DNA of 37,249 nt from Minisyncoccota bacterium (GTDB lineage Bacteria; Patescibacteriota; Minisyncoccia; Phycocordibacterales; EsbW-18): positions 1 to 37,249 of the forward strand of contig JAPXOG010000005.1 in assembly GCA_033811555.1 (NCBI GenBank), written 5' to 3'. Each line of letters starts with the position of its first letter. The stretch's first letter is position 1. The notes under the pieces were generated by a model. It was not told the origin of the DNA. It did no database searches and saw only the letters and a list, made by a program, of their open reading frames with translations. Positions 14,260 through 30,893 of this stretch are shown here, one piece after another. The position numbers and the translations under genes are program-made.

Positions 14260-16683
14260 ATGAAGGTTTCTCTATCATGGCTTCAGACATTTTTTGAAAC
14301 TCCGCTTCCTGATGCGGAGGATATCAAGCAGGTACTTACTTTCGGAGCGTTTGAGGTTGAGGATGTAGAGGGTATTGGAAATGATGTGGTATTTGATGTG
14401 AACGTGCTACCAAACCGAGCTCATGATTGCCTTTCACATAGAGGTATCGCAAAGGAGCTTTCGGTTTTATTGGATATTCCAATGAAGCGAGACCCACTTT
14501 TAGATCAGAAGAATTCATGTGTTTGCATAGGAGATCTTTCTGTGGTTGTAGATGACAGTAATGCATGCCCTGTATACCATGCGGCACGCATATCTGGTAT
14601 CACAGTAGGTCCTTCTCCTGATTGGTTGGTTAAGCGTCTTGAAACCATAGGACAGCGTTCAATTAATAATGTAGTGGATGCTACAAATTTTGTGATGCAT
14701 GAGTTAGGTCAGCCTTTGCATGCTTTTGACACAGGAAAACTAAGTTTACGTGACGGCATTGTCTCTCTTCGTGTGCGTATGGCACGAGCAGGAGAACGAA
14801 TACATATTCTTGGTGGTGAAGAGATAGAGCTTTCCGAACGAATACAACTTATAACGGATGCATCGTCTGAGGAGCCTCTTGCTATCGCAGGAATAAAAGG
14901 TGGTGCACATGCAGAAGTGGATAATGCAACGACAGACATCGTATTGGAGTCGGCGAAGTTTCATCCATCACTGACGCGCAAAGCATCTCAGATTCTGAAA
15001 ATTCGCACAGATGCTTCACAGCGTTTTGAGAATGAAATTCCAGATGAACTTCCAGCGCAAGCTATGCAAACACTTATTGAACTTATTCTTGAGGTGGCTG
15101 GAGGTAAGCAAATCGCGTATTCGTATGTGCAACGACAAATGCCGAAACTCCCATATATTGTGGGATTTTCTTCTTCTGAAGTTAACGCACTTCTAGGAAC
15201 ACAACTTTCTGACGAAGAAGTAGCTCGCATTCTGCAACGGTTTGGGTTTGAATTTGAAATTGTAAGAGATCCGCGCGCTAAAATTGTAGATTGCGCGCGT
15301 AGCGCTATTGGAGCACAGTATAAGCGCCTTGCCCGTATACGATTTGATACTCCAGAGAGTTTCAATTGTTCTTCATTAACATCATGGTGTGCTATTGAAG
15401 CAGGATATTCATTTGGCATTGCTCGTATAGCTATAGATCAGTTTGCATATCTTGACCACGTTGATGAAAAAGACGCTCTTCCTGGAGATTTTGTGTTTAC
15501 AAATACTGGAGTTGTACAAAAACAAGATGGAGTTATGTATTCTCGAGTTCTAGATACAATAGTACAGGATGAATCTATACGAACACAGACTCTAGAGTTT
15601 CTTCCAGGTACAGATATTGGGCATGGTGTCGATCATGTTGGAGTGTATGTTGGTGACGGAAAGGTAATACATGCTTCATCTAGTGCAGGAGAAGTTGTTG
15701 AAGAACTTTTGTATGAAAGCAAAGGTTTTAGTAAAGAAAAGTGGTACAGAAGAGTTGTGCATAGTAATGAATCGCGGTTTGCGGTAACTATTCCTTATAC
15801 ACGTCTTGATTTGCGTTTGCCTTCCGACATCTTTGAAGAGATAGGACGTGTATATGGGTACAAAAATATACCAGCTAAACAATTGCCACCTCGTGAGTTG
15901 GTCCCAGAGAGTAATGAAGTGTTTCTTTGTTCAGAAATAATAAGGAAAACTCTTGGCAATCTTGGGTTTCTTGAAGTGTATTCATACTCATTTCGAGATG
16001 TTGGCAAAGTATTATTGTCTAACCCGTTGTCTCAGGATAAGGCTTATTTACGAGAAACTCTTGCAGGAGGTATAGCCGACGATCTGGAAAAAGGAGAATA
16101 TCACGCTTCATTTTTGGGTTTGCAAAGTGTTTTACTGTATGAGATAGGCACTGTGTTTCACAGTAATGAAGAGCGTGTTCATGTGTGCGTAGGAGTTCGT
16201 TCACTTGATTCTAAAAATAGAGATTCTCGTTCAAAAGAAAAATTACTTGAAGCGAAAGAGGCGCTTGAGAGAGTACTTGGAATTAATCTTGATGTGCAAA
16301 TAGGGGATGAGACATTTGAGTTTGACATTGAAAGGGCGATTTCTGGGAAAAAATTGTGGAGCACGGATTTAGCAGGAGTTGCTCCTGGAGTTGTTTATGT
16401 TGCGCCATCATCGTACCCACATGTTCTTCGTGACATAGCGGTATGGGTTGCTGATGGAAAAGGTGATTCTCATACAGTTTTAGAAATGGTTCAAAAAAGT
16501 GCAGGAGATTTACTGGTGCGTGCAGATTTGTTTGACACGTTTACAAAAGATGGAAGAACTTCTTACGCTTATCATCTTGTGTTTCAGTCACGTGAGAAGA
16601 CACTAACTGACCATGAGATAAACGATATCATGGAGAAAGTAACTGTTCTTCTTGATGCTCAAGAAGGTTGGCAGGTACGATAA
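14260..16683 (+). CDS. pheT: Phenylalanine--tRNA ligase beta subunit lacking the B2 OB fold and carrying an inserted NlpC/P60-like domain
   Basis: B1 (MKVSLSWLQTFF...), then directly LPNRAHDCLSHRGIAKEL. B3/B4 (INNVVDATNFVMHELGQPLHAFD). B5 split by an insert (see the next feature). C-terminal VLRDIAVWV...YAYHLVFQS (FDX-ACB-like). Confidence 0.92.
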   Translation: MKVSLSWLQTFFETPLPDAEDIKQVLTFGAFEVEDVEGIGNDVVFDVNVLPNRAHDCLSHRGIAKELSVLLDIPMKRDPLLDQKNSCVCIGDLSVVVDDSNACPVYHAARISGITVGPSPDWLVKRLETIGQRSINNVVDATNFVMHELGQPLHAFDTGKLSLRDGIVSLRVRMARAGERIHILGGEEIELSERIQLITDASSEEPLAIAGIKGGAHAEVDNATTDIVLESAKFHPSLTRKASQILKIRTDASQRFENEIPDELPAQAMQTLIELILEVAGGKQIAYSYVQRQMPKLPYIVGFSSSEVNALLGTQLSDEEVARILQRFGFEFEIVRDPRAKIVDCARSAIGAQYKRLARIRFDTPESFNCSSLTSWCAIEAGYSFGIARIAIDQFAYLDHVDEKDALPGDFVFTNTGVVQKQDGVMYSRVLDTIVQDESIRTQTLEFLPGTDIGHGVDHVGVYVGDGKVIHASSSAGEVVEELLYESKGFSKEKWYRRVVHSNESRFAVTIPYTRLDLRLPSDIFEEIGRVYGYKNIPAKQLPPRELVPESNEVFLCSEIIRKTLGNLGFLEVYSYSFRDVGKVLLSNPLSQDKAYLRETLAGGIADDLEKGEYHASFLGLQSVLLYEIGTVFHSNEERVHVCVGVRSLDSKNRDSRSKEKLLEAKEALERVLGINLDVQIGDETFEFDIERAISGKKLWSTDLAGVAPGVVYVAPSSYPHVLRDIAVWVADGKGDSHTVLEMVQKSAGDLLVRADLFDTFTKDGRTSYAYHLVFQSREKTLTDHEINDIMEKVTVLLDAQEGWQVR
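15265..15777 (+). other. NlpC/P60 (papain-like cysteine hydrolase) domain inserted in the PheT B5 domain
   Basis: ARSAIGAQYK..., FNCSSLTSW (Cys370, nt 15367-15369), PGDFVF, DHVGVYVGDGKVIHAS (His459, His471). Flanked by the B5 halves ...ILQRFGFEFEIV and FAVTIPYTRLDLRLPSDIFEEIGRVYGY. Confidence 0.75.
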
Positions 16684-16943
16684 AAATAAAAAAGAGAATA
16701 GAATATTCATGGTTTTTACTGTTCAAGTAATCGATAAAACCGTGTAATTATCTAATAACGTATTTGTAGTGCTTAGATAAATAATCAATATAGTAAAGTC
16801 TATCTCCAGATAATTCATTGAATATTTTTTCGTATATATTGAGGGCGCTTAGTTTTCCATCCTATTTTTGAAGAGCATTTTCAAGACATATTTGTGAAGA
16901 TTTTTTGGTTAATGAATAAGAGAGTTTTGTGCTTGTGATTTAC

Positions 16944-17020: not shown

Positions 17021-19120
17021 ATGGCAAAGAATAAAAAAGAAGAAAAAAAGAACATTTCAAACGGATATACCGCTCAAGATATTACTGTTTTGGAAGGTCT
17101 TGATCCTGTTCGGAAACGTCCAGGTATGTACATTGGTACAACAAGCACGGAAGGTCTGCACCACCTTATATGGGAAGTATTTGATAACTCGCGTGATGAA
17201 GCGATGGGCGGTTTTGCTGACGATATTGAAATAGCGTTGTTACCAGGTAATCGTGTGCGTGTGATTGATAATGGGCGCGGAATACCAGTTGATGTACATA
17301 AACAGACTAAAGTGTCTGCGCTTGAAACAATTATGACGACGCTTCATGCTGGAGGGAAATTTGGAGGAGAAGGATACAAAATATCTGGTGGTCTTCATGG
17401 GGTTGGTGTCTCAGTAGTTAATGCACTTTCACAATATGTGCGAGTTGATGTTTGGCGTGACGGTAGCAGGTACATGCAAGAATATCAGCGCGGAAAACCT
17501 AAATCAAAAACTAAAAAACTCGGCAGTTCACCCGCTCATGGAACGGCAGTATTGTTTGAGGCGGATCCACAGATTTTTCCAGAAATAAAATATAGTTGGG
17601 AAAAAATTGTTCAGCATATGCGACAGCAAGCATATCTTGTTCGTGGTCTTCGTATAACTGTCATAGATGCGCGAGAAGTAGAGGTAAGCCCAGACCTTGA
17701 CGATATTATGTACGTACGAGAAGCAGGATTGGAGGCACCGTCGATGACATTTTATTTTGAAGGAGGACTTGTTTCTTTTATCCGTCATCAAAACGAATAT
17801 GAAAAAACAATACACAAGACAATTTTTTATGTTGAAAAGAAACACGAGGATGTACAGGTAGAGGTAGCATTGCAATATGGTGACGATGTCACAGATCAGA
17901 TTTTTGCATTCGCTAATAATATATACAACTCGGAGGGTGGTATGCATATAACTGGTTTTAAAACTGCACTTACACGAACTCTTAATGCTTATGCAAAGAA
18001 AGAAGGCATACTGAAAGAATCTGAAGGCCCGTTTTCAGGAGAAGATGTCTTAGAAGGATTGACTGCAGTTGTATCTGTGAAGCTTCGAGAAATTCAGTTT
18101 GAAGGACAGACAAAATCAAAATTGGGGTCAGTTGAGGCGCGTGGAGCCGTTGAGACGGTGTTCGGCGAGGCTTTTGGTATGTTTCTTGAAGAGAAACCAG
18201 ATGAGGCGAAGGCGATTATAAATAAAGTAGTATTAGCGTTACGTGCACGAAAAGCTGCAAAGGCGGCAAAGGACAGTATTTTACGCAAAGGAGCACTTGA
18301 TGGTATGACGCTTCCTGGAAAACTCGCTGACTGTCAGACAAAAGATGCGACAGAGTCTGAAATTTTTATAGTAGAAGGAGAGTCTGCGGGAGGTACAGCA
18401 AAGACCGGTCGAGATCGAAGGACACAAGCAATACTGCCTTTGCGTGGAAAAATTCTTAACGTAGAGCGCGCACGACTTGATCGTATGCTTTCATCTGAGC
18501 AGATAAAAAACTTAGTTGTTGCTCTTGGAACGGCGATTGGAGACACATTCAATCTCTCTAAACTTCGTTATCATAAAATAGTAATTGCAACGGACGCTGA
18601 TGTTGATGGCGCGCATATTAGAACGCTTTTGCTAACATTGTTTTTCCGTTACTTTCGCCCTGTAATTGACGGAGGATTTCTCTATATTGCACAACCTCCA
18701 TTGTATAAAGTGAAGCGCGGTAAAGAAGTTCTGTACTTTTATACTGAAGAGGAAAAGACGACGTTTTTAAAAAAAGAAGGAATAGATATTTCCACAGTAG
18801 AAGAAACCACAGAACAAATAAACACTGAAGAAACTGAAGACGAAGTTGGTATCGAAGATGAAGAAGAAAACATAGAGAAAAAAAAGAGCGACACAAGAGC
18901 AATGAAACTCTCCATTCAACGATATAAAGGACTTGGAGAAATGAACGCCGAAGAGCTTTGGGAAACAACGATGGATCCAGAAAATCGTGTACTAAAACAA
19001 GTGATGGTGGAAGATGCTCAGGAGGCGGATCGTATATTCGACGTTTTGATGGGAACCGATGTACCTTCACGTAAGTCTTTTATTCAAAGCAACGCTAGGT
19101 TAGCAAACGTTGATATATAG
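17021..19120 (+). CDS. gyrB: DNA gyrase subunit B
   Basis: YTAQDITVLEGLDPVRKRPGMYIG, GLHHLIWEVFDNSRDE, GGLHGVG, EGESAGG, PLRGKILNVE, ATDADVDGAHI, QRYKGLGEM. An acidic insertion of about 40 aa precedes QRYKGLGEM. Confidence 0.96.
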   Translation: MAKNKKEEKKNISNGYTAQDITVLEGLDPVRKRPGMYIGTTSTEGLHHLIWEVFDNSRDEAMGGFADDIEIALLPGNRVRVIDNGRGIPVDVHKQTKVSALETIMTTLHAGGKFGGEGYKISGGLHGVGVSVVNALSQYVRVDVWRDGSRYMQEYQRGKPKSKTKKLGSSPAHGTAVLFEADPQIFPEIKYSWEKIVQHMRQQAYLVRGLRITVIDAREVEVSPDLDDIMYVREAGLEAPSMTFYFEGGLVSFIRHQNEYEKTIHKTIFYVEKKHEDVQVEVALQYGDDVTDQIFAFANNIYNSEGGMHITGFKTALTRTLNAYAKKEGILKESEGPFSGEDVLEGLTAVVSVKLREIQFEGQTKSKLGSVEARGAVETVFGEAFGMFLEEKPDEAKAIINKVVLALRARKAAKAAKDSILRKGALDGMTLPGKLADCQTKDATESEIFIVEGESAGGTAKTGRDRRTQAILPLRGKILNVERARLDRMLSSEQIKNLVVALGTAIGDTFNLSKLRYHKIVIATDADVDGAHIRTLLLTLFFRYFRPVIDGGFLYIAQPPLYKVKRGKEVLYFYTEEEKTTFLKKEGIDISTVEETTEQINTEETEDEVGIEDEEENIEKKKSDTRAMKLSIQRYKGLGEMNAEELWETTMDPENRVLKQVMVEDAQEADRIFDVLMGTDVPSRKSFIQSNARLANVDI

Positions 19121-19177: not shown

Positions 19178-19206
19178 TTGACAGAAGTGTTTTTATAATA
19201 TATAAT
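19178..19206 (+). promoter_or_regulatory. Consensus sigma70 promoter upstream of the CARDB-sortase-adhesin genes
   Basis: TTGACA (19178-19183), a 17-nt spacer and TATAAT (19201-19206): a perfect consensus. Confidence 0.6.
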
Positions 19207-19308: not shown

Positions 19309-20370
19309 ATGGAACTTCTATCAGCACCAAAAAAGAAAATAGTGAAAGACAGCGTTCGTATGGCACTTACGGTCATCGGCGGTATTACCGTTATAGTGGC
19401 AATTATTTGGGTTGGTATTCGAGGATTAAGTCTTTTTCCGAACGTGAATGCATTTCTTGCAAACGCAGTATCAGGTATCCGGTCAGTATTTGTTCCTACT
19501 GAACGAATAGTGATAGGAACGGTTGATAGTCAGATTGCAGTGAACAAGCCGTTTACTCTTGTTTGGGAGCATCGAGGTAATACCAGCGATGGTACATACA
19601 CTTTTTCGTATGAGTGTCAGGGCGGTGTGTTTCTTGCTCGTCGGGATGAAGGAATGCAGAAAACTATTTTCTGCAATACTGAAGTTCCGATTAAAGAAAA
19701 TGAAACCGAGATTGGATTTGTGGCTATAGGTTCAGTTCCTAGTGTTGCTGAGATACCAGTAAAGATTACATTTACACGAGCTGGTCAATTGTTCGCATCT
19801 GTTTCAGGTGAAGCTAAATTGTTAGTTCAAAGTGAGTATTTTGATACTGCCACAAGCACGGAAGTTGTTACGAAAACTCCAGAAGGAGCTACTACAATTC
19901 CACATAATACGAATACCAACGTGCAAGTTCCTCAACAGCACACAATGGTGCCTGTTGTAACACAGCCGTTCTCTGATCCAAATGGTTCTCCTGACCTGTT
20001 TGTGCGCGTTCTTGGATATGGTCTAGTTGATCAAAAGACCGGGGTTTTTACTGAGTTAGACAAGATTCCTTACAATTTACCTTCAGGAAAGCGCGGAGCA
20101 TTACGTTTCCTAGTGGTAAATCTTGGAACAAAAGAGAGTGGAACTTGGGAGTTTTCAGTAGACTTGCCTACTTCACCGTCTTATACATACAAGTCGGATA
20201 AACAACAGACTCTTTTCCCTGGAGATAGGATTGAATATACCATCGGTTTTGACAGCATTCGTAAAGCTACTCATGATGAATATCGCATTGTTGTAGATCC
20301 TAAAAATAAGGTTCATGAAAGCAATGAGGCAAATAACATACACAAAGGAATTGTAATAATTGAAAAATAA
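19309..20370 (+). CDS. Membrane-anchored/secreted protein with a C-terminal CARDB-like domain
   Basis: N-terminal TM (VRMALTVIGGITVIVAIIWVGI). The C-terminus, PDLFVRVLG...RFLVVNLGTKESG...YRIVVDPKNKVHESNEANN, matches the CARDB ending motif (D-P-x-N-x-V-x-E-S-N-E-x-N-N). Confidence 0.7.
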   Translation: MELLSAPKKKIVKDSVRMALTVIGGITVIVAIIWVGIRGLSLFPNVNAFLANAVSGIRSVFVPTERIVIGTVDSQIAVNKPFTLVWEHRGNTSDGTYTFSYECQGGVFLARRDEGMQKTIFCNTEVPIKENETEIGFVAIGSVPSVAEIPVKITFTRAGQLFASVSGEAKLLVQSEYFDTATSTEVVTKTPEGATTIPHNTNTNVQVPQQHTMVPVVTQPFSDPNGSPDLFVRVLGYGLVDQKTGVFTELDKIPYNLPSGKRGALRFLVVNLGTKESGTWEFSVDLPTSPSYTYKSDKQQTLFPGDRIEYTIGFDSIRKATHDEYRIVVDPKNKVHESNEANNIHKGIVIIEK

Positions 20371-20390: not shown

Positions 20391-21065
20391 ATGAATACTT
20401 ACACGCATCAAAAAAATACGGGAATTGTGAGCGATTTTGTGCATATGTGTAAAACACATCCAGTGCTTGTGGGTTCTTTGTGGTTCGGAGTATTTACCGT
20501 GTTGTTTGGGATTTCTTTGTCGCTTGGAATTGTGCCGAAAATCGAACGTGATGAGTCACCAACTGTATTTGCAGAGATGCAGAAACCACTACCTAAACAG
20601 GAAGAGAAGGTTACAGAGTTGAAAAGTGCACTTCCAGAACGTGTTATTGTTGAGCGCCTAGGTATCGATACAGTTGTTGTAAACCCATTAAGTTCTGATA
20701 TAGCTACTCTAGACGCTGCTCTTTTGCAGGGAGTTGTGCGTCACCCTCTCTCAGGTGACTTAAACGACGAAAGCAATATGTTTTTATTCGGACACTCTAC
20801 GGGATTTCGTGTTGTTCAAAATGAAGCGTTTAAAGCTTTCAATGGTCTGCGAAATGCGAAAAAAGGTGATTTGATACGGGTGCAATCATCCACTGATGAA
20901 TACGTTTATCGTGTTACTAACGTAACTTTGGTTGATGCTCAAGAATCACTGGTATCGTTTGCTACAGGAAAGAAAAAGTTGACCCTTACAACATGTAACT
21001 CATTTGGCGCTAAAGAAGAGCGATATGTCGTTGAAGCAGATTTTATAGGTAGTTATGCTCTGTAA
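20391..21065 (+). CDS. Sortase-family transpeptidase
   Basis: N-terminal TM anchor, catalytic His context FLFGHSTG, the TLxTC motif as LTLTTCNSFG, and a downstream Arg (ERYVVEA). Confidence 0.85.
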   Translation: MNTYTHQKNTGIVSDFVHMCKTHPVLVGSLWFGVFTVLFGISLSLGIVPKIERDESPTVFAEMQKPLPKQEEKVTELKSALPERVIVERLGIDTVVVNPLSSDIATLDAALLQGVVRHPLSGDLNDESNMFLFGHSTGFRVVQNEAFKAFNGLRNAKKGDLIRVQSSTDEYVYRVTNVTLVDAQESLVSFATGKKKLTLTTCNSFGAKEERYVVEADFIGSYAL

Positions 21066-21150
21066 TAACAATATATTAGGGTATTGACTTATACATTAAT
21101 AAATAGTATAATAGAAGGGCGATTAATATAAGAAAGTAAAAATAATAATT

Positions 21151-24100
21151 ATGAAAACAACCACATACGAAAACCTATATCGCATGCCAAAAACCGCCGC
21201 AGTTATTTTAGGTGTATTTCTTGTAGTTGGTGCGATAATCGCTGGGAATGTTGGCGCACAAGACGCAAGTACTAGAACAGAAGGAGATACAACAAGCGAA
21301 CTCATAGCAGTGTCGTCTGGTGAAGGTAGGATATCGTATGGTTCTGGTTCTTCTGCTGGGACTCAATCTGAATGTCAGCTAGACCCGTGGTCTGATCTTC
21401 GTGCCCCAGATGGTAGTCCATTTGATCCGTACAGCAATCCTCGTGTTGTTATAGACGGCAATTCTGCAAGCATTTCTGTAAAGAACTTTTCTGATTCTTG
21501 TAGTTATCGTATTAATCTAGCTTCTTATGAAGTCTTTGATCCAGAAATGCCATTGTTTGTACAAACACAAAAACTTTTTGATAGCACATGGATAACCATT
21601 CAACCAGGACAGACGCAAACGCTTTCCGTAGACCTTCCTGAATGTGCATTTCAAGTTGATTTATTTGAAGGACCTTTTATTCCAACTACTAATCCGAACT
21701 TTGACGGTGTTACTTACCCTGACCTTCGTATTTTCGATTGGTTAGTAAAAATGGATTTGCCACTATGCACAACTGTAACTGTCTGTGAACCTTGGAATGA
21801 TCTTCGAGCTCTAGACGGCGGAGTTTTTGATCCTTTTAATAATCCTAGAATAATAGTAGAAGGAAATATAGCTAAAATTTCTGTAAAGAACTTTTCTGAT
21901 TCTTGTGTTTATAGAGTAAATTTTGCTTCTTACGAAGTTTTTGATCCAGAAATGCCATTGTTTGTACAAACTCAAAAACTTTTTGCCAGTGAGTGGCAAA
22001 TTCTGCAACCAGGACAATCTAGAACTCTTATGGTAAATTTGCCTGATTTACCTGAATGCGCATATCAAGTAGAATTATTTGAAGGGCCTTTTATTCCGAC
22101 CACAAATCCCAACTTTGATGGCATTACCTATCCGGACTTGCATATTCTAGATTGGCTTATAGATATGGATTTGCCTTTGTGTGGTACGACTGGCCCTCAA
22201 ACTGCATCCCTAAAACTCGTTAAGCACGTCATAAATGACAACGGAGGAACTGCAGTAGTTAGCGATTTCAACTTGTACGCAAATGACATCAAGTTTGTAA
22301 GTGGAGTAGCTCAGAATATTCAACCAGGTACATACAAAGCACGTGAAGATCAACTTCCCGGATACACAGCATCTGATTGGTCAGGAGACTGTGCTGCTGA
22401 TGGAACAATCACACTTGCCCCTGGTGACAACAAAACTTGCCACATCACTAACAATGACAATCCTGAGATTCCAAATGCAGCAGTGCTTACTGTTATAAAG
22501 ACGGTTATCAATGATGATGGGGGTACTGCTGTAGTAGGAGATTTCAAGTTGTTTGTAACTCAAGGGCGTAGCCTTCGAGGTGATGTTCTTGTACGAAGTG
22601 GTGAACCGAATAAATTTGCTCCAGGAAAGTACAAGGTATATGAAGTACAGCTTCCTGGATACACAGCATCTGATTGGTCAGGAGACTGTGCAGCAGACGG
22701 AACCATCACTCTTGCTCCTGGTGACAATAAAGTTTGCCGTATAACTAACAATGACAATCCTGTAATTCCACCAAGAGTAGCAACCCTAAAACTCGTTAAG
22801 CACGTCATAAATGACAACGGAGGAACTGCAGTAGTTAGCGATTTCAACTTGTACGCAAATGACATCAAATTTGTCAGTGGAGTATCTCAGAATATTCAAC
22901 CAGGCACATACAAAGCACGTGAAGATCAGATTCCAGGATACACAGCATCTGATTGGTCAGGAGATTGTGCTGCAGATGGAACAATTACGCTTGCTCCTGG
23001 TGATAATAAAACTTGTCACATCACTAACAATGACGATCCTGTAATTCCTAATGCAGCAGTGCTTACTGTTATAAAGACGGTTATCAACGATGATGGAGGT
23101 ACGGCTGTTGTGGGAGATTTCAAGTTGTTTGTAACCAAAGAACGAGTATTAGGACGAAGTCTACTAGATGAAGTTTTGGTACGAAGTGGCGAACCGAATA
23201 AATTTGCTCCAGGAAAGTACAAGGTATATGAAGTACAGCTTCCCGGATACACAGCATCTGATTGGTCAGGAGATTGTGCTGCTGATGGAACCATCACTCT
23301 TGCTCCTGGTGACAATAAAGTTTGCCGCATCACTAACAATGATATAGGCGGAGGCGATGATGACGATGACGACGATGATGATGATGGAGGCGGAGGGGGT
23401 GGAGGAGGTGGTAGTAGTTCACGACGCCGACCTAAAGTAACTCTTTTCTCAAATCCCGAAATCTTAGGAGCCTCTGTTTCACTCACGCAAATTCCTTATA
23501 CAGGTCTTGGCACAAGTATTCTGCAGATCGCGCTGTTTATGATTGGACTGGTAGCGCTCTCTGGAGGTGCAGTATATCTTTTTGCTCGACGTAGAATAGT
23601 CGAAGTCCACACAGAAGATGTTCATATAGATAGCTCTACAACAAGTACTGCACAGCAAGAAGAGGCACGAATCCTTTATGAAGAAACGATAGCACCACCT
23701 GTAGACGAAGCATTTGCATCATATGATGAATATGCGTACGCAGATGATATATCTACTCAAGAACAGTTAACAACTCCAACTACACCAGATAATTTGCCAG
23801 TTGCTACAGCACCGGTTTCCGTTGGATCAGTAGTGCGCCAGAATCGAGTAGCAGAGATGGCGGAACATCACAAGAAAAACAACGTATCAGTTGCTAGACT
23901 ACAGGGCGTAGCTCGTTCTTCTCAGGTACTTATTTCAGACGATGGTATTAAACTTATCGTGGCAGCAGGTGAAAACGATGAAGTTAAATCAATAGAGCGT
24001 CTTACGCAGGTTATTGAGGTAGCAAAAACACGGTACCCACGCGAAGACGGATGGCTAGTTCTTGATGCTACACGGGTTCGCGAATCACTATTCATTTCTA

Positions 24101-24495
24101 TCCTTACGATGGTTCCTCTATTTATTGAATGGATAGTGCGAGGTGAAGACAAGCATGTGTTTGCATTTATGCGAATGCTTAAGGCACAGAACCAGCCAGT
24201 ATCGGACTTTGTACGTAAAGTTGTTGCTGAACTTGATAATGCGCACAGGGCACGTCTTGAAGGATCAGAAGATATATCGGTAGATCCACATGTTGCAGAG
24301 ATTACATACCATCTCAGTAATCGTGATTTGGAGGCGATAGTTTCCGAATTGCTACTGGGTGTTGACGAAAGATATGATTCTGCTTATACGTCTGTTCGAC
24401 TTGCACTTACTCGTGTTCTAGATATAGTTCGTTCTCGAAGCATGCTCCGCATAGGAGGGACGTACGCATTTGATAAAGAACAGAGAGAGGCATAA
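21151..24495 (+). CDS. 1114-aa repeat-rich surface protein with an internal sortase-type sorting signal and a roughly 300-aa C-terminal tail domain
   Basis: Signal/TM (AAVILGVFLVVGAIIAGNVGA). Two Cys-rich modules of about 135 aa. Four Ig-like modules of about 95 aa (V.NDNGGTAVV.DF...PG.YK..E...PGYTASDWSGDC...CxITNND). A poly-Asp/poly-Gly/Ser linker. Then IPYTG, a 27-aa mostly hydrophobic segment (TM) and RRR, followed by 299 further residues in the same frame. Confidence 0.85.
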   Translation: MKTTTYENLYRMPKTAAVILGVFLVVGAIIAGNVGAQDASTRTEGDTTSELIAVSSGEGRISYGSGSSAGTQSECQLDPWSDLRAPDGSPFDPYSNPRVVIDGNSASISVKNFSDSCSYRINLASYEVFDPEMPLFVQTQKLFDSTWITIQPGQTQTLSVDLPECAFQVDLFEGPFIPTTNPNFDGVTYPDLRIFDWLVKMDLPLCTTVTVCEPWNDLRALDGGVFDPFNNPRIIVEGNIAKISVKNFSDSCVYRVNFASYEVFDPEMPLFVQTQKLFASEWQILQPGQSRTLMVNLPDLPECAYQVELFEGPFIPTTNPNFDGITYPDLHILDWLIDMDLPLCGTTGPQTASLKLVKHVINDNGGTAVVSDFNLYANDIKFVSGVAQNIQPGTYKAREDQLPGYTASDWSGDCAADGTITLAPGDNKTCHITNNDNPEIPNAAVLTVIKTVINDDGGTAVVGDFKLFVTQGRSLRGDVLVRSGEPNKFAPGKYKVYEVQLPGYTASDWSGDCAADGTITLAPGDNKVCRITNNDNPVIPPRVATLKLVKHVINDNGGTAVVSDFNLYANDIKFVSGVSQNIQPGTYKAREDQIPGYTASDWSGDCAADGTITLAPGDNKTCHITNNDDPVIPNAAVLTVIKTVINDDGGTAVVGDFKLFVTKERVLGRSLLDEVLVRSGEPNKFAPGKYKVYEVQLPGYTASDWSGDCAADGTITLAPGDNKVCRITNNDIGGGDDDDDDDDDDGGGGGGGGGSSSRRRPKVTLFSNPEILGASVSLTQIPYTGLGTSILQIALFMIGLVALSGGAVYLFARRRIVEVHTEDVHIDSSTTSTAQQEEARILYEETIAPPVDEAFASYDEYAYADDISTQEQLTTPTTPDNLPVATAPVSVGSVVRQNRVAEMAEHHKKNNVSVARLQGVARSSQVLISDDGIKLIVAAGENDEVKSIERLTQVIEVAKTRYPREDGWLVLDATRVRESLFISILTMVPLFIEWIVRGEDKHVFAFMRMLKAQNQPVSDFVRKVVAELDNAHRARLEGSEDISVDPHVAEITYHLSNRDLEAIVSELLLGVDERYDSAYTSVRLALTRVLDIVRSRSMLRIGGTYAFDKEQREA
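21373..22182 (+). repeat. Tandem duplication (2 units of about 405-411 nt) encoding the Cys-rich N-terminal modules
   Basis: For example CCAGAAATGCCATTGTTTGTACAAAC at 21541 recurs at 21946. At protein level, CQLDPWSDLRAPDG...MDLPLC matches CEPWNDLRALDG...MDLPLC. Confidence 0.85.
22204..23343 (+). repeat. Tandem duplication (2 units of about 576 nt, each made of two subunits of about 290 nt) encoding the Ig-like modules
   Basis: Offset is exactly 576 nt. The run 22208-22292 is identical to 22784-22868 (85 nt). The motif GGATACACAGCATCTGATTGGTCAGGAGA occurs four times. Confidence 0.9.
23491..23595 (+). other. Cell-wall sorting-signal-like module (IPYTG, hydrophobic helix, RRR)
   Basis: ATT CCT TAT ACA GGT at 23491-23505 encodes IPYTG, followed by LGTSILQIALFMIGLVALSGGAVYLFA and RRR. 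Confidence 0.6.
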
Positions 24496-24519
24496 TAGAT
24501 TTTAGAATGTCAGGTTAGA

Positions 24520-24556
24520 GACGTCCTCGCCAAATTGGCGAGGACGTCTTGTTTTT
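24520..24556 (+). terminator. Intrinsic terminator after the surface-protein gene
   Basis: GACGTCCTCGCC-AAAT-TGGCGAGGACGTC (24520-24548) followed by TTGTTTTT. Confidence 0.8.
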
Positions 24557-24650
24557 ACAGTGAAATGCTCAGTATGCTATAATGCACTCAAATGGTGTCA
24601 TTTTGCGGTAGTTCGCGAAAAGTCATCTTTATAAGTGATAATTTTTTGTT

Positions 24651-24866
24651 ATGGAAAATTACAAAAAAGGAGGTGTGGGAGTGACGGTTCTTATAATCGT
24701 TGTGCTTCTCATTCTGGCAGGAGTTCTCTACTTCAAAAACCGTCGAGACGAGGTTCCGCCGATTGAAGATGCGATTGTCGAGAATAACGTTGCAACTGAT
24801 ACTCCGACTGTTGAGACAGAAATAGAGGTGGAAGTTGAAGCTCCTGTTGAAGCTCCTGCAAACTAA
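24651..24866 (+). CDS. Small single-pass membrane protein with an acidic Glu/Val/Pro-rich tail (71 aa)
   Basis: TM helix VTVLIIVVLLILAGVLYF, then NRRDE and an acidic tail (ETEIEVEVEAPVEAP). Own upstream promoter (TGcTATAAT 24575-24583; also GATAAT 8 nt before the ATG) and its own terminator. Confidence 0.55.
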   Translation: MENYKKGGVGVTVLIIVVLLILAGVLYFKNRRDEVPPIEDAIVENNVATDTPTVETEIEVEVEAPVEAPAN

Positions 24867-24955: not shown

Positions 24956-26050
24956 ATGTCACTATCGTTAGGAATAGTTGGTCTTCCAAATGTCGGTAAA
25001 TCTACACTTTTTAATGCGCTGACTAAACAAAGCGTTCCAGCCGCAAACTACCCGTTTTGTACGATTGATCCTTCAGTTGGCATTGTTCGTGTTCCAGATC
25101 CACGACTTGAAGCTCTTTCGGATCTTTCAAAATCTGCCCAGACTATTCCAGCTGTAGTTCAGTTTGTTGACATCGCAGGGCTTGTAGCAGGTGCCTCAGT
25201 AGGGCAAGGGCTTGGTAATCAATTTCTTTCACATATACGAGAGGTAGATGCAATTACTCATGTTGTGAGGATTTTTGAAGACTCTGATATTCTGCATGTT
25301 TCTGGTTCTGTTAACCCGATGCGTGATATTGAAGTTGTTAATCTTGAGCTAGTATTGGCTGATTTACAATCGGTAACTAAACGCTTACATTCGGTTGAAA
25401 AAGAAGTTCGGGCAGGAGATAAACACGCAAAAAATGAACAGGCGGGTCTATTAAAGGTTAAGGAGGCTCTTGAAGGAGGTTCTTTTGCATCACATGCGCA
25501 ACTTACCGATGAAGAAATAGCTGAAGTGCGTAAGTTGACTCTTTTAACGATGAAGAAAATGCTATACGTTCTTAACACTAAATCTGGAGGACAGAATCTT
25601 GATGAGTTACAGGATGCTCGTTGGGAAGAGTTAATGGAATTTTTTGAAAAGATAAAAGCAGAGTATGTAGTTGTAGACGCTAACACCGAAGGAGAACTCA
25701 ATACTTTTGATGTTGAGGAACGAGACTCTATACGAAAAGAGCTTTCTGTGCGCGGAGGCATAGATGACTTGATTATTGCAGGGTATAAAATACTTGACCT
25801 CATAACGTTTCTTACAACAGGAGAAAAAGAAACACGGGCATGGACAACTCGTCGTGGTTCAACAGCGCCTCAGGCAGGGTCTTCAATTCATACTGATTTT
25901 GAACACAAATTTATTCGTGCAGAGGTAGTGTTTTGGCAAGATCTTATTGAATCAGGTTCGTATGCGCGAGCACGTGAAAAAGGATTGGTGGCAACCGTAG
26001 GTAAGGAGTATATCGTTCGCGATGGAGATGTAATTGAATTTAAGATTTAA
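24956..26050 (+). CDS. ychF: Redox-regulated ATPase YchF (Obg-like GTPase family)
   Basis: LGIVGLPNVGKSTLFNALT, YPFCTIDP, DIAGLV, and a C-terminal TGS-like domain (GDVIEFK). Confidence 0.95.
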   Translation: MSLSLGIVGLPNVGKSTLFNALTKQSVPAANYPFCTIDPSVGIVRVPDPRLEALSDLSKSAQTIPAVVQFVDIAGLVAGASVGQGLGNQFLSHIREVDAITHVVRIFEDSDILHVSGSVNPMRDIEVVNLELVLADLQSVTKRLHSVEKEVRAGDKHAKNEQAGLLKVKEALEGGSFASHAQLTDEEIAEVRKLTLLTMKKMLYVLNTKSGGQNLDELQDARWEELMEFFEKIKAEYVVVDANTEGELNTFDVEERDSIRKELSVRGGIDDLIIAGYKILDLITFLTTGEKETRAWTTRRGSTAPQAGSSIHTDFEHKFIRAEVVFWQDLIESGSYARAREKGLVATVGKEYIVRDGDVIEFKI

Positions 26051-26073
26051 GGAAAATCAGATACAATAATTTT

Positions 26074-26295
26074 ATGCTAATAGTCAAACCTAAGATAGGT
26101 AAAAGTAAAATTGAAGGCGTTGGGTTATTTGCAGATCAGTTTATTCCGAAAAGAACAGTGGTTTGGAAATTTGACCCGCGATTCGATATTTATTTTGATA
26201 CAAAAGAAGTGGAAGAAATGGCTAAAGATTATCGAGCAATTGATGCTACAGATGAGGGTGGTGATGAGGAATATTTGAATAAGGAGGTCCTATAG
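26074..26295 (+). pseudogene. SET-domain-like N-terminal fragment (73 aa), probably a truncated remnant
   Basis: SKIEGVGLFADQFIPKRTVV resembles the start of small bacterial SET-domain proteins. The ORF stops before any NHSC / post-SET-type motif and ends in an acidic tail. Confidence 0.35.
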
Positions 26296-26367
26296 AGCTT
26301 TAAACATAGAAAACGTAATAAGCAGTATGAATTATGAAAATAAACAAAATGCTTAATGAATAGTATG

Positions 26368-27228
26368 GATATTGTTCCTCAGCTTATATTGAATAGTATT
26401 ATTGCGGGAGCAATATATACAATGATTGCCCTAGGTTTCAATCTTATCTATGGAACAACAAAATTTTTTGACTTAGGTTATGGATCATTTATTGCAATAG
26501 GAGGGTATTCAGTATTATTTTTTTATAGAACCCTTGGATTTAATCTTTATATCTCGATCCCACTCGGTATCTTTATTGCGGGTCTAGTGGGGTTTGTTGT
26601 ATATCGTTTAATATATTCCACACTAAGATCTAGAAAATCTTCAAACATGGTTTTGCTTGTAGCATCTTTAGGTGTTCTAACGACTATCCAGGCGATAATA
26701 GCAATATTTTTTACAAGTCAATTCCATGTACTTTCTTTAAAAAATAGCTCTAACCCTATAAGTATTTTTGGAGGAGTTATAACACAAACTCAATTAGTCA
26801 CGTTTATTCTGGGAATTGCAGTCATGGTGCTCATAGCCACCGTTTTTCGTTGTTCGTTGTTTGGAAAAACGATAAAAGCTATAGGAGATGATGAGGAAGT
26901 CTCTAGAATAGTCGGAATCAATACTAACAATATAATTGGATGGGTTTTTTTCATTGGTTCAGCCATAGGGGGTCTCGCGGGTATTCTAATTGGATTTGAT
27001 ACTGGGGTTGAGCCGATGATGGGTCTATCGTTTCTTTTGAAAGGCATGGTTGCCTCTATAATTGGTGGAATAGGGAATGTGTACGGCAGTGTACTGGGGG
27101 CTTTCCTGCTTGCATTTATCGAAAACTTTGGGATATGGAAAATTTCCGGAGAATGGAAGGATGCTGTCGCCTTTTCAGTTCTAATCGTTTTCCTTTTATT
27201 CAGACCACAAGGGGTATTGAAAAGATAA
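26368..27228 (+). CDS. livH: Branched-chain amino acid ABC transporter permease (LivH family)
   Basis: MDIVPQLILNSIIAGAIYTMIALGFNLIYG is the canonical LivH start. Multi-TM, with GKTIKAIGDDEEVSRIVGIN. The ATG at 26368 is preferred to 26356. Confidence 0.9.
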   Translation, partial: DIVPQLILNSIIAGAIYTMIALGFNLIYGTTKFFDLGYGSFIAIGGYSVLFFYRTLGFNLYISIPLGIFIAGLVGFVVYRLIYSTLRSRKSSNMVLLVASLGVLTTIQAIIAIFFTSQFHVLSLKNSSNPISIFGGVITQTQLVTFILGIAVMVLIATVFRCSLFGKTIKAIGDDEEVSRIVGINTNNIIGWVFFIGSAIGGLAGILIGFDTGVEPMMGLSFLLKGMVASIIGGIGNVYGSVLGAFLLAFIENFGIWKISGEWKDAVAFSVLIVFLLFRPQGVLKR

Positions 27229-27229
27229 T

Positions 27230-28096
27230 ATGGAATATTTAATACATCTTCTAATATTAATTTCGATTTATGCAATTCTAGGTCTCTCCTTGGATTTGGT
27301 AGTTGGACTAACAGGACTCCTTAGTGTGACTCAAGCCGCATTTTACGGAATTGGAGCATATACTACAGCAATACTCTTAACGAATCTTAATATAAATTTC
27401 TTTTTATCTATAATTTTCGGAATGATCATAGCGGGAGTTAGTGGTCTAGTAATTGGACTTGTGCTTTCAAAATTTAAAGGGGATTATTATGCGCTGGGCT
27501 CGTTTGGATTTAATGTAATCGTTTATACAATTTTACTTAATTGGCAGTCGCTTACTGGAGGTCCTTTAGGAATTCCTGGAATTTCTCGTCCAAATTTATT
27601 TACATTTTCCTTTTCTAACAACCTCTCATTTTTGATTTTATCTATTGTTATTTTTCTGATAATTTTTGGAATCTATTATTTTATATCTAAGTCCTCTTTT
27701 GGACGAGTGCTTAGAGCTATTCGGGAAGATGAAGAAGTTATATCTGTTTTTGGTTATCATACACTTTGGTTCAAAATGTCTATTTTTGTGATTGGAGCTA
27801 TGCTTGCATCTGTTGCTGGTTCACTCTTTGCAAGTTATATAACTTTTGTCGACCCTTCATCATTCACATTAACTGAATCGATTTTTGTTCTTTCTATAAT
27901 CATTCTGGGAGGACTAGCCAATCGTAGAGGAGCAATTATTGGGGCTGTTTGCTTGGTTTTGCTCCCAGAGATTTTACGATTTGTAGGATTTCCATCTGAA
28001 ATAGCCGCTCAAATAAGACAGGCAGCGTATGGTCTTATTCTAATACTGCTTATGCTATATAGACCCCAGGGTTTGGTGGGTGAATATAAATTTTGA
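27230..28096 (+). CDS. livM: Branched-chain amino acid ABC transporter permease (LivM family)
   Basis: GLTGLLSVTQAAFYGIGAYT, GRVLRAIREDEEV, multi-TM. Starts 1 nt after livH. Confidence 0.9.
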   Translation: MEYLIHLLILISIYAILGLSLDLVVGLTGLLSVTQAAFYGIGAYTTAILLTNLNINFFLSIIFGMIIAGVSGLVIGLVLSKFKGDYYALGSFGFNVIVYTILLNWQSLTGGPLGIPGISRPNLFTFSFSNNLSFLILSIVIFLIIFGIYYFISKSSFGRVLRAIREDEEVISVFGYHTLWFKMSIFVIGAMLASVAGSLFASYITFVDPSSFTLTESIFVLSIIILGGLANRRGAIIGAVCLVLLPEILRFVGFPSEIAAQIRQAAYGLILILLMLYRPQGLVGEYKF

Positions 28097-28155
28097 ACTT
28101 TACAAATTGAGTATTTATTATAAAATAGGAATCTATTAATAGTAAAAACTTTTAT

Positions 28156-29253
28156 ATGAGAAACAAAAAAATAATCCTTGTAGGGGTTTTAATAGTTTTG
28201 GTAGTTATTGTTTTAATTACTGCGAAGAATAACAATCAGACTAATACCTCTTATAATATTGGAGCAGTAATACCTCTGACTGGTACTGCAGCATACTGGG
28301 GAGAACCAGTTCAACGTGGAATTTTATTGGCACAGGAGACCATAGACAAAAAATTTGGTAACGGAACACTTAAAATTTTAATCGAGGATGGAAAATCCGA
28401 CCCTAAAGAATCTGTATCTGCAGCCCAAAAATTATTATCGATTAATAAGGCAGATGCGATTTATGTTGAACTTTCAGGTCCTAGCTCTTCAGTAGCGCCA
28501 GTAGTAAAAAATGCAGAAAAAATTTATTACTATGGAGCTTTTAACGATAAGGTCGTATCTAATTTTGATAATGCAATAAAAGGGTTTTTATCATATACAG
28601 GTCCTTGTGAATTCTTTGGTAAATATCTAAAAAGTAGTGGTATTAGTAAGGTAGCTATACTTAATCAGTTTCCTGATACAGCACCGTCTTGTGCGGTCGC
28701 TCTTGAGAAGTATATTCCACATGAAAATATTCTATTGCTTGAAAATCTTCCAAAAGACAATGATTTTCGTAGCATACTTTTACAGATAAAAAGTTTCGGG
28801 GCAGGGGCTATCATAGGAATGACTTACGAGGGACCTTCACTTGCTTGGATAAAGCAAATGAAAGATCTAGGAATGAACTTACCAGTTTTAAGTGGGCACG
28901 ATGATGCACTTACTCAAAATATAATTGATACTATTGGTATAAATAATCTAGAAGGAAGTTTATATTTTGATGCAAGAGTCAATCCTGATTTCGTAAACTT
29001 CTATAAAGAAAAATATCCGGATAGCCCAAGTTCAGACCTTATTCCTGCCGGATATGCGTATGAAGGGATAGTTAATCTTGCAGAAGCGATAATTTCTTGT
29101 AAATCAAATGTGTCGTGTACAGTTAAATCGTTTAATAATCGAACAAGTGATGCTGGTGCAATAATTGGAGCAGGATTTAAAAACCGTGTACTCACCTCAT
29201 CGCTGGATTATTATCTGATTAAATCAGGGACCACGACCTTGTTTAATTTTTAA
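28156..29253 (+). CDS. ABC transporter substrate-binding protein (Leu/Ile/Val-binding, Peripla_BP_6-like)
   Basis: N-terminal anchor/signal, then NIGAVIPLTGTAAYWGEPVQRGILLAQETI, typical of LivJ/K-type binding proteins. Confidence 0.8.
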   Translation: MRNKKIILVGVLIVLVVIVLITAKNNNQTNTSYNIGAVIPLTGTAAYWGEPVQRGILLAQETIDKKFGNGTLKILIEDGKSDPKESVSAAQKLLSINKADAIYVELSGPSSSVAPVVKNAEKIYYYGAFNDKVVSNFDNAIKGFLSYTGPCEFFGKYLKSSGISKVAILNQFPDTAPSCAVALEKYIPHENILLLENLPKDNDFRSILLQIKSFGAGAIIGMTYEGPSLAWIKQMKDLGMNLPVLSGHDDALTQNIIDTIGINNLEGSLYFDARVNPDFVNFYKEKYPDSPSSDLIPAGYAYEGIVNLAEAIISCKSNVSCTVKSFNNRTSDAGAIIGAGFKNRVLTSSLDYYLIKSGTTTLFNF

Positions 29254-29422
29254 TAAAAGATTAGATAAAAAATATTTATAGGTTGAGAATGAACAGAGAG
29301 TGGATTATTGAGAACAAGGAGATGTTTGTTGTAGTTGGTTTGTTCTGAGCGTCGTGCATAGGTGTATTTTAGTACAGAAAATTAAAATAATGACTGTACG
29401 TAACTCTTCTAGTTGAAAATAA

Positions 29423-30172
29423 ATGGCTATTTTGTTAACAAAGGATTTAAGGAAGCATTTTGATGGATTTTACGCAGTTAATAAATTAACGATCAATTTT
29501 GAACAAGGATATATTACAGGAATCATTGGACCAAATGGATCAGGAAAATCAACTCTAGTTAATGTTCTTTCAGGGCTGATTCCTTTCGAAGGAGGGGAGG
29601 TGATTATTTCAGGAGAAACTCTGGTTAAAATTCATTCGTATCAAACACTGTCTTTTGGTATGACACGTACGTTTCAGGAGGTGAGATTATTTGAGCAGAT
29701 GTCAGTAATCGATAATATACTAGTAGTTTTAACTGATAGAAGAATTGGGAAGTCCTTTTTTGAAAAACATACTTCTTTTCATTTAGAGAAGGCGGAATCT
29801 TCGTTGAAGAAAGTGGGCCTCTGGGAAAAAAAAGATGAACTTGCTAAAAATTTATCATATGGGCAACGCAAACTGCTTGAAATAGCTCGTGTTACTGCAT
29901 TGGATCATAATGGGATTAGTGATTTAAAGATTGTGTTATTTGACGAACCATTTGCAGGGTTGTTTCCTGAAATGGTAAAAATTGTTTTGTCGGCCATACA
30001 AGAACTTAGAGAACAAGGAAAAGCTGTTGTGCTAATTGAACACAATATGGAATTGATTCGAATGTTATCAGACTATCTTTACGTTTTAGATTCAGGTGAA
30101 CTGCTAGCTGAAGGAAAACCAAAAGACGTATTGTCCAGGGCAGATGTGATAGAAGCATATCTAGGCGAATAA
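29423..30172 (+). CDS. livG: Branched-chain amino acid ABC transporter ATP-binding protein (LivG family)
   Basis: Walker A GPNGSGKST, signature LSYGQRKLLEIAR, Walker B LFDEP, C-terminal IEAYLG. Confidence 0.9.
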   Translation: MAILLTKDLRKHFDGFYAVNKLTINFEQGYITGIIGPNGSGKSTLVNVLSGLIPFEGGEVIISGETLVKIHSYQTLSFGMTRTFQEVRLFEQMSVIDNILVVLTDRRIGKSFFEKHTSFHLEKAESSLKKVGLWEKKDELAKNLSYGQRKLLEIARVTALDHNGISDLKIVLFDEPFAGLFPEMVKIVLSAIQELREQGKAVVLIEHNMELIRMLSDYLYVLDSGELLAEGKPKDVLSRADVIEAYLGE

Positions 30173-30173
30173 T

Positions 30174-30893
30174 ATGAAAGAGGCATTGTTAAAGTTAGAG
30201 GATATTCATGTACATTATGATGGAGTTATAGCGCTTGATGGAGTTTCTATCGAAGTAGAAGAAGGTGAAGTTGTCGCTCTAATGGGGCCAAATGGAGCCG
30301 GTAAATCAACTCTTCTTAAGGTTATATTTGGTCTAGCAGAATCTGACTTAGGAAGGGTTTACTTAGAAGGCCAGATAATTGTTCCTTTGTCTCATGAAGT
30401 AGTAAAACTAGGAATCTCTTTTGTACCTCAAGGTCGTCGAGTATTTCGACATCTTACTGTATTAGAAAATTTAGAAATTGGAGGATTTATATTATCAAGA
30501 GACGAGAGAAATGAGAAGATAAACGATGTTCTTGAACTATTTCCTGTCTTAAAAAACAAAATTAAAGAAAAATCTGGTACTTTATCAGGAGGTCAACAGC
30601 AAATGTTAGCCATTGCCAGAGGACTTATGACAGACCCCAAAATACTTCTGCTAGATGAACCATCGCTCGGTCTTGCCCCAAATGTAGTAAAAGAGGTTTT
30701 TAAAAAAATAAGAGAAATAAACCAGAGACGTAAAATGGCAATTGTAGTTGTAGAGCATAATATAAAATCATTGATTGAGATTTCTGACAAAATGTATGTT
30801 CTTGACAAAGGCAAGGTTGTCGCAGAAGGTGATCCTAAAAAGTTAAATTTACCAGAAATAATGGAGAAAGTATTTCTAGGTAAATTATTATAG
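30174..30893 (+). CDS. livF: Branched-chain amino acid ABC transporter ATP-binding protein (LivF family)
   Basis: Walker A GPNGAGKST, signature LSGGQQQMLAIARGL, Walker B LLLDEPS, C-terminal VFLG. Confidence 0.9.
   Translation: MKEALLKLEDIHVHYDGVIALDGVSIEVEEGEVVALMGPNGAGKSTLLKVIFGLAESDLGRVYLEGQIIVPLSHEVVKLGISFVPQGRRVFRHLTVLENLEIGGFILSRDERNEKINDVLELFPVLKNKIKEKSGTLSGGQQQMLAIARGLMTDPKILLLDEPSLGLAPNVVKEVFKKIREINQRRKMAIVVVEHNIKSLIEISDKMYVLDKGKVVAEGDPKKLNLPEIMEKVFLGKLL

Follow-up and report, generated by a model that had tools for sequence, protein, structure and literature searches.

We report a surface protein gene of the Candidate Phyla Radiation (CPR, or Patescibacteria) in which a sortase-type sorting signal stands in the middle of the protein and is followed, in the same frame, by a conserved domain that is predicted to be cytoplasmic. 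The DNA analysed (the window) is a 37,249-nucleotide stretch of contig JAPXOG010000005.1 from a Minisyncoccota bacterium, and positions 21151-24495 of its forward strand form one uninterrupted open reading frame (ORF) of 1114 amino acids (aa) that closes with a TAA stop codon at 24493-24495. According to the textbook definition, a sortase substrate finishes with its positively charged tail, and cleavage leaves in the membrane a disposable remnant some 30 residues long. Our preferred reading of the window gene, to which we give a probability of roughly 55%, is that it encodes a genuine single protein of a Paceibacteria/Parcubacteria-like bacterium, that this protein is what the sortase of a dedicated cassette mainly acts on, and that its clamp-loader-like tail is left in the membrane. 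The layout is real and widespread as a variant of sortase substrates in Patescibacteria. It is also apparently undescribed: full-text literature searches returned no description of a mid-protein sorting signal with a cytoplasmic clamp-loader-like tail.

The 1114-aa ORF encodes, in order, a predicted signal peptide, an ectodomain, a sorting signal and a tail; like the cassette genes and regulatory sites described below, it lies on the forward strand. The signal peptide region (aa 1-38, 21151-21264) has the features expected for Sec export, with a hydrophobic stretch at aa 11-38 (core at about aa 16-35) and then AQD and a putative cleavage site; the Kyte-Doolittle maximum is 2.49, for segments starting at aa 11-20, and the homologues begin likewise. 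There follow two copies of a cysteine-containing domain of about 135 aa (21358-22185), which reads …DPWSDLRAPDGSPFDP…VKNFSDSC.YR.NLASYEVF… and has no Pfam (2025) or NCBIfam (2026) match in our scan of the window proteins. Related copies, at 26-55% identity, occur in the homologous loci L003, L004, L006, L008, L012 and L013. Next come four SpaA_2 prealbumin-like domains of the pilin or adhesin stalk type (22186-23346; PF19403, E=1.9e-54, in four stretches) and a spacer of poly-Gly, poly-Asp, poly-Gly and Ser (aa 733-757, 23347-23421), for which the homologues P0001 and P0002 have equivalent D/G-rich spacers. The conserved pre-motif RRRPKVTLFSNPEILGASVSLTQ leads into IPYTG (together 23422-23505; consensus VLF..P....VxLSQVPYTG), the pentapeptide itself being aa 781-785 (23491-23505). 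It is followed by a hydrophobic 27-aa transmembrane (TM) segment, LGTSILQIALFMIGLVALSGGAVYLFA (aa 786-812, 23506-23586; Kyte-Doolittle maximum 2.22), which forms a single long helix in the AlphaFold2 (AF2) model, and by an RRR stop-transfer (aa 813-815, 23587-23595). Around the predicted cleavage site the sequence is SLTQIPYTGLG, and the peptide spanning the motif is VSLTQIPYTGLGT. A further 299 residues are then encoded in frame (23596-24492). In the hydropathy scan, the signal peptide and the TM segment are the only strong hydrophobic segments of the protein.

The initial annotation, made from the letters alone, had described a single 1114-aa ORF with a sortase gene directly upstream (20391-21065) and with IPYTG, a hydrophobic segment and RRR in canonical order mid-protein, followed by 299 residues. 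The ORF listing and the family matches (PF04203, TIGR01076) bore out this account and its coordinates. A natural objection is that a stop or frameshift just past RRR was missed, so that an ordinary sorted protein and the independent gene behind it have been read as one, an outcome that the initial annotation had itself named as fatal to its reading. Homopolymeric D/G codon runs and internal repeats do make the gene hard to assemble, and the homologous loci L001, L003 and L006 contain N-gaps or broken calls. More generally, the Gly/Asp runs before the signal and the repetitive ectodomain go with N-gaps or split calls in several homologue assemblies; the regions concerned are 23347-23421 in the window, about 9.7-9.9 kb in L001, and parts of L006, L009, L017 and L019. 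However, the junction between signal and tail is unaffected in every assembly with such ectodomain gaps or split calls. RRR and the linker that follows it are in frame in each of more than 60 independent assemblies, and there is no stop or frameshift after RRR in any homologue. Where the sequence suffices, the tail is always part of the same ORF, and tail-only sequences are contig-edge fragments (P0003, P0004 and P0031). One candidate for a separately translated tail, the P0003 call starting at MGES…, was rejected as a partial call at a contig edge: the corresponding ORF in L002 continues upstream to the contig edge, where it starts …PYTGLGTSLFQIFLF…ARRRMGES and includes PYTG and the TM segment.

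The surroundings of the gene agree with this. A sigma-70-like promoter match (TTGACT-17-TATAAT, 11 of 12 positions, a consensus match only) lies upstream of the ORF at 21084-21112, and an intrinsic-terminator-like hairpin with a 15-bp stem and a T run lies 23 nucleotides past the stop codon, at 24518-24550. In the same consensus scans there was no promoter-like site, start or terminator at the signal-tail junction, and the ORF listing holds no competing forward-frame ORF of at least 60 aa across 23500-24495. Since a promoter is found only upstream and a terminator only after the tail, the ORF looks like one monocistronic unit, tail included. With the fused layout present in 43 of 43 representative proteins and 17 of 18 genome loci (see below), the idea of an assembly artefact is effectively refuted.

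Conservation of the layout was followed through homologues of several kinds. Six database homologues of the C-terminal 354 aa, at 26-64% identity, were found, and every one with enough sequence has SQ[IV]PYTG, TM segment and tail in one chain (P0001-P0006, L002). A scan of one genome per species then gave 18 Patescibacteria loci (from Campbellbacteria, Wolfebacteria, Taylorbacteria and Paceibacterota, and some mislabelled Saccharibacteria). In stop-to-stop ORFs, [STAN]Q[VI]PYTG lies about 290-350 aa before the ORF end in 17 of the 18, and the last is cut by a contig edge. A HMMER search of 1.8 billion cluster representatives returned 12,043 matches, but because the profile retained He_PIG ectodomain columns most of these are unrelated giant repeat proteins, and family size is not readable from the counts. 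Only 43 tail-spanning proteins, each representing a 50%-identity cluster, were used from this search. All 43 have [VIL]PxTG and a TM segment 257-430 aa ahead of the C-terminus, so that in none of them, as in the window protein, does the sorting signal end the chain. Word-index homologue searches gave one match with the signal profile and four with the tail profile; this index evidently misses the family and gives no census.

The signal is also conserved in the way that a sortase would require. Across 29 aligned diverse signal regions, less than 50% identical overall, P, T, G and the L at position -4 are invariant, Y is at least 90% conserved and the first position is V, I or L. Rare variants among the 43 representatives, PETG and PITG, retain P-x-T-G, and six representatives have the literal LPXTG form LPYTG. 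Thus the loss of P-x-T-G among homologues that the initial annotation had asked about was not seen; IPYTG belongs with the LPXTG-like pentapeptides, and aa 786-812 provide the predicted membrane span after it. On these alignments, and with its recurrence in more than 60 independent assemblies, the fused layout is far beyond chance.

To avoid circularity, metagenome contigs were also scanned with a degenerate DNA pattern for [VI]xL[SAT]Q[VI]PYTG alone. Among 80 metagenome loci read, the motif is followed by a TM segment in 72 ORFs, 65 of which are complete at the 3' end. Long tails matching the hidden Markov model of the tail are present in 23 of the 65, and three more have the lid domain (see below) only (L051, L063 and L074). 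In 30 there are 76-160 residues after the motif, many of these tails terminating …APRIVIxR or …FILSQINRPRRA, and in seven there are 46-75. Two are canonical (L086 and L030); the L086 ORF ends …VIKKKRS directly before its stop codon and adjoins a pair of CARDB and sortase genes. Counting all classes, at least five tail types stand behind the same PYTG signal. Judged from these ORFs, PYTG plus TM is a general sortase-linked signal of this CPR lineage, and a cytoplasmic extension is the rule, not the exception. The initial annotation had treated the layout as a peculiarity of one locus, and in this respect it has to be replaced: the layout is lineage-wide, and most CPR PYTG signals carry extensions, of several types.

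Some details of the other tails may be recorded here. In metagenome ORFs, VxL[ST]Q[VI]PYTG and a TM segment precede at least three other conserved cytoplasmic tail types (loci L033, L035, L037, L039, L041, L043, L050, L053, L070, L071, L073, L081, L087 and L096-L099). One is 100-130 aa long and terminates …D(S/A)M…G.APRIV(I/V).R(S/N/A), another terminates …F(I/V)LSQINRPRRA, and a third, of about 64 aa, contains …GGVLRFSFAQEVKAAMRNQ…. Locus L097 has a tandem pair of PYTG proteins with different tail types, and two others, those of L033 and L095, share one contig. When 320 kb of related loci were scanned for further proteins with P-x-T-G and a TM segment, only the tail proteins were found.

The second element of the system is the sortase encoded at 20391-21065, a protein of 224 aa with an N-terminal TM anchor. 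It matches PF04203 (E=3e-18, 66 bits, cutoff 26.6) and TIGR01076 (43 bits, cutoff 39.35), and contains FGHS, LTLTTC and ERYVV with the catalytic residues His135, Cys202 (in LTLTTC) and Arg211; these three are invariant in eight cassette sortases that share 33-49% identity. The NCBIfam models for sortase classes C, D, E and GN score at best 29-42 bits against cutoffs of 140-165, and because all the matched class models stay so far below cutoff, we place this enzyme in an unclassified CPR lineage. By tblastn, a sortase homologue lies directly upstream of the tail protein in every locus with upstream sequence (L001, L003-L013, L016, L017 and L019), including loci whose tails are merely 26-28% identical to the window tail. 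In five of five further diverse representatives the sortase is zero or one gene upstream, and in L023 it accompanies the tail protein in a different genomic context (rplY-SLT-rplI…proS). For complete PYTG ORFs of the metagenome sample with at least 2.5 kb of upstream sequence, a sortase is in the locus in 17 of 20, across all tail classes; for the long-tail loci the figure is 8 of 8, at 0.5-1.9 kb before the ORF start. The link to the neighbouring sortase thus extends to very divergent members, as well as to the canonical, C-terminal use of the signal beside the same cassette in L086.

The tail itself consists of a linker and a folded domain. The linker (aa 816-913, 23596-23889) is acidic, as the initial annotation had noted, with a net charge of -13 over aa 816-912, and its predicted local distance difference test score (pLDDT) below 50 marks it as disordered. 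It contains SYDEY (23719-23733) and PDNLP (23785-23799), which recur in many homologues as [AS]Y[EDN]EY and PxN[LI]P and which, from this recurrence, are candidate docking motifs. There follow an AAA+ lid-like domain of the clamp-loader type (aa 914-972, 23890-24066; AF2 pLDDT about 95) and a helical collar-like domain (aa 973-1105, 24067-24465), which in Foldseek comparisons resembles clamp-loader domain III. In the AF2 model of the C-terminal 354 aa, a long TM helix is followed by a disordered segment and then by a confidently predicted domain; the domain of about 190 aa modelled alone with 30 diverse homologues reached a pLDDT of 89.9 and a predicted template modelling score of 0.81. For both of these models, 50 of the 50 best Foldseek matches in the PDB are clamp-loader subunits, at a probability of 1.0: E. 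coli gamma/tau (best E=1e-5 to 1.6e-5), delta and delta', B. subtilis delta, yeast and human RFC, Rad24-RFC and Ctf18-RFC. The alignments cover about 190 of 219 residues, at 13-15% identity to the clamp-loader chains. The initial annotation had seen here a helix-rich region without a recognised motif; the helices stand, but the fold can now be recognised as a clamp-loader-like lid and collar.

Searches at the sequence level helped to delimit this likeness. PF16193 (AAA lid, MgsA type) has weak matches in 6 of 30 diverse tails, and no significant Pfam or NCBIfam family, the clamp-loader families included, was found in the window tail or among these 30, so that none of the models scanned describes the tail. 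The same scans found no DNA-binding or enzymatic motif. Between the TM segment and the lid there is no AAA+ P-loop domain, the roughly 100 acidic residues there having a pLDDT below 50 and no match to a P-loop family. The sensor-2 arginine is not conserved in the tail alignment or in the comparison with DnaX. A PDB sequence search with the long profile matched only SraP-type adhesin domains, through the ectodomain columns. By its modelled fold, the tail is a 'headless' clamp-loader-like module of lid and collar; it does not qualify as a clamp-loader subunit.

Different parts of the protein have evolved at very different rates. Between the window protein and its relatives L004-L013, lid and collar (aa 913-1105) are 66-78% identical and the signal region 57-85%, whereas the ectodomain is 22-59% and the linker 23-37% identical. 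Furthermore, the ectodomain domains are shuffled among members, which variously have SpaA_2, DUF11/CLIPPER, He_PIG, CARDB and PKD domains. As far as sequence comparison goes, one would expect such a contrast if a variable surface module facing the environment or a host were mounted on a sorting and cytoplasmic unit that stays constant.

Under our preferred reading, the cassette would consist of the sortase and its substrate together with a CARDB-domain membrane protein and, in many cases, a small TM protein. The signal peptide would export the fast-evolving, adhesin-like ectodomain, while the lineage-specific LPXTG-type signal, VxL[STA]Q[VIL]PYTG with its TM helix and basic residues, would hold the protein in the membrane; by the positive-inside rule, the tail would lie inside the cell. 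Sortase substrates carry a signal peptide, an LPXTG motif and a TM segment, and are cleaved between T and G (PMC12445088). By analogy with this established biology, the neighbouring sortase would cleave T784|G785, the ectodomain would pass to the cell wall or to another acceptor, and G785-A1114 would remain anchored in the membrane, its folded domain in the cytoplasm. Most likely, the tail would be a protein-protein interaction or oligomerisation module on the cytoplasmic face, which may organise, position or cluster precursors for the sortase before cleavage, or persist as a cytoplasmic record of completed sorting, or both. Clamp-loader collar domains mediate subunit assembly, which makes an interaction or oligomerisation role for the tail the most economical proposal.

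Several observations weigh against this reading. Some members of the tail family, such as P0020 and P0027, lack a clear basic stop-transfer, and neither Pfam Gram_pos_anchor nor the NCBIfam LPXTG-anchor models match the window protein at E<=1. The adjacency of the sortase is partly inherited, since most of the close loci share a gyrB…ychF synteny block, although this caveat weighs less in view of the divergent loci and the metagenome sample. The structural likeness has its own weaknesses. Foldseek TM-scores for the tail against clamp loaders are about 0.45 and the root-mean-square deviation is about 11 Å, which we attribute to a hinge between lid and collar. Against PDB sequences, the tail profile finds the lid region of RFC5/RFC4 (isEDG..l...s.GD.r.Al..L, in the sensor-2 region) at a weak E=0.16-0.7. 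In hhalign, columns 25-155 of the tail align with residues 154-276 of a Patescibacteria DnaX (L019), corresponding to the lid and the start of domain III, at E=0.0017 and a probability of only 15%, so that homology at the sequence level is weak, if in register. There is a borderline hydrophobic stretch inside the tail (aa 978-998, Kyte-Doolittle 1.76), although AF2 buries it; as a candidate second TM segment it was rejected, lying within a confidently folded helical domain and containing Pro and Glu. Finally, strong purifying selection on a domain that is severed at each sorting event would be costly for a minimal genome, and fits an uncleaved protein equally well.

This last point leads to the strongest competitor, that the protein is an uncleaved or conditionally cleaved single-pass TM adhesin or receptor in which PYTG docks the sortase or another partner. 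The ectodomain would then stay joined to the tail, and through this link whatever the surface touches, such as a host cell, would be coupled physically to a partner in the cytoplasm. The tail domain is indeed the best conserved part and always belongs to the same polypeptide, the short conserved linker motifs suggest regulated cytoplasmic interactions, and the presence of cytoplasmic extensions in 63 of the 65 complete PYTG and TM ORFs sampled, whatever the tail, would be odd if they were merely discarded. Yet P, T and G are invariant while the position between P and T tolerates Y, E or I, which is exactly what a sortase requires; an active-looking sortase is always adjacent, and L086 and L030 have the same signal at a true C-terminus. 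We also know of no TM receptor family that uses an LPXTG motif as a structural element. On balance we regard an uncleaved receptor as possible but clearly the less probable account.

Cleavage might alternatively set off a signalling or partitioning device, in which the remnant is released or reorganised, for instance by an intramembrane protease, and reports surface display inward; the clamp-loader-like domain would then act on clamp-loader or replisome components, or on transcription. The C-peptide of Streptococcus gordonii (see below) offers a precedent, the tail is folded like the domains through which clamp-loader subunits interact, and gyrB, dnaX and dnaE recur nearby. However, among the loci examined the cassette has no conserved site-2 protease, regulator or kinase, the tail has no DNA-binding or enzymatic motif, and the replication-gene neighbourhood may be plain synteny in very small genomes. 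The unrelated short tails on other PYTG proteins also mean that a specific link to the replisome would not be general. We consider such a device unlikely. A bolder version seems less probable still, and we mention it as speculation: cleavage at PYT|G would sever a host-contacting ectodomain from an ATPase-less module held at the membrane, which would oligomerise in the manner of a clamp-loader collar or engage the cell's own DnaX, HolA, HolB or beta-clamp, tying surface deployment or host attachment to replication or the cell cycle in episymbiotic CPR bacteria. The supposedly discarded ends of CPR sorting signals would then constitute a family of cytoplasmic effectors.

Comparison with known systems helps to define what is unusual here. 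Like canonical sortase substrates, the window protein has an adhesin- or pilin-type SpaA_2 ectodomain and an adjacent sortase gene with an intact triad. Unlike them, it has a signal that is not C-terminal, with 299 residues including a folded domain past the basic residues; conservation reaches about 20 residues back from the pentapeptide, neither the Pfam nor the NCBIfam anchor models match, and the host belongs to the CPR and is neither a Firmicute nor an Actinobacterium. Dedicated pairs of sortase and substrate are also familiar, for example the class GN 'marine' sortase TIGR03784 with its single target, or SrtB with IsdC. The window locus resembles these in being a small conserved cassette with a lineage-specific LPXTG variant, but their targets end right after the signal, whereas the window cassette adds a CARDB protein and a cytoplasmic domain on the substrate, and the window sortase lies far below the cutoffs for classes C, D, E and GN. 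With clamp-loader subunits (DnaX gamma/tau, HolB delta', HolA delta and RFC) the modelled tail shares a lid (domain II) followed by a collar (domain III), in the same order; it differs in lacking the AAA+ P-loop domain I and a conserved sensor-2 arginine, and in following a sorting signal, by which it is tethered to the membrane. In S. gordonii, a two-component kinase senses the C-peptide that stays in the membrane after sortase A has acted (Hall et al., 2019, as cited in PMC11326707). As that account presents it, a membrane remnant left after sortase cleavage can carry information inward, but there a bare signal of about 30 aa is sensed in trans, whereas the window remnant would itself bear a tail of about 300 aa that includes a folded domain, and has no associated kinase.

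What makes the system of wider interest is that nearly all PYTG signals sampled in this large, uncultivated radiation of minimal genomes bear conserved cytoplasmic extensions, and that a well-folded, clamp-loader-like domain, the commonest extension of the cassette substrate, is better conserved than the surface part. Possibly the remnant of sortase processing is functional, in organisation, quality control or signalling; possibly these proteins are transmembrane links between surface and cytoplasm, or the sortases of this lineage work differently. Any of these readings, if true, would change the view of surface-protein sorting outside Firmicutes and Actinobacteria. The question also matters for the assembly and control of the surface structures by which CPR episymbionts attach to hosts. 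In addition, VxLSQ[VI]PYTG followed by a TM segment is a searchable signature for the sortase-dependent surface proteome of Parcubacteria-type genomes, in a case where the anchor models scanned missed the window protein.

Two further genes accompany the sortase and its substrate. Upstream, 19309-20370 encodes a membrane-anchored CARDB-domain protein of 353 aa (PF07705, E=2e-7) with an N-terminal hydrophobic anchor and no sorting signal; a promoter-like site (12 of 12 matches) precedes it at 19178-19206. In the majority of related loci the sortase has a CARDB homologue beside it, which may lie on either strand; a role as acceptor or scaffold is possible. Downstream, 24651-24866 encodes a small single-pass membrane protein of 71 aa, M..N.QKGGAGVTILIIVVLLILAGVLFF.N and then an acidic, Thr-rich tail, with a promoter-like site at 24554-24583 in the consensus scan. 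Homologues lie in the same position, downstream of the tail protein, in L001, L002, L004, L005, L007 and L025, and this protein may be a fourth, accessory member of the cassette.

With regard to replication genes, gyrB (17021-19120 in the window) adjoins the cassette in most loci, dnaX lies about 5 kb downstream of it in L018/L019 (at about 7.9-9.0 kb), and dnaE is two genes downstream in L027 (11148-14357). In genomes this small, all this may be no more than synteny; we mention it in view of the clamp-loader-like fold of the tail. The remainder of the window is housekeeping in character. Positions 1-16700 and 24956-31000 contain gatB, gap, rpiB, rpe, a split transketolase, pfkB, fba, rplY, an SLT transglycosylase, a branched-chain amino-acid ABC transporter, a prfA-like gene, rpsB, tsf, pheS/pheT and ychF, a content consistent with a small Patescibacteria genome. 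The pheT gene (14260-16683, forward strand) has a weak internal NlpC/P60 match at aa 450-486 (E=2e-8), and the same extra family is found on the pheT of L001. By gyrB, the closest relatives, at 84-87% identity, are L005, labelled Campbellbacteria, and L004, labelled (probably wrongly) Saccharibacteria.

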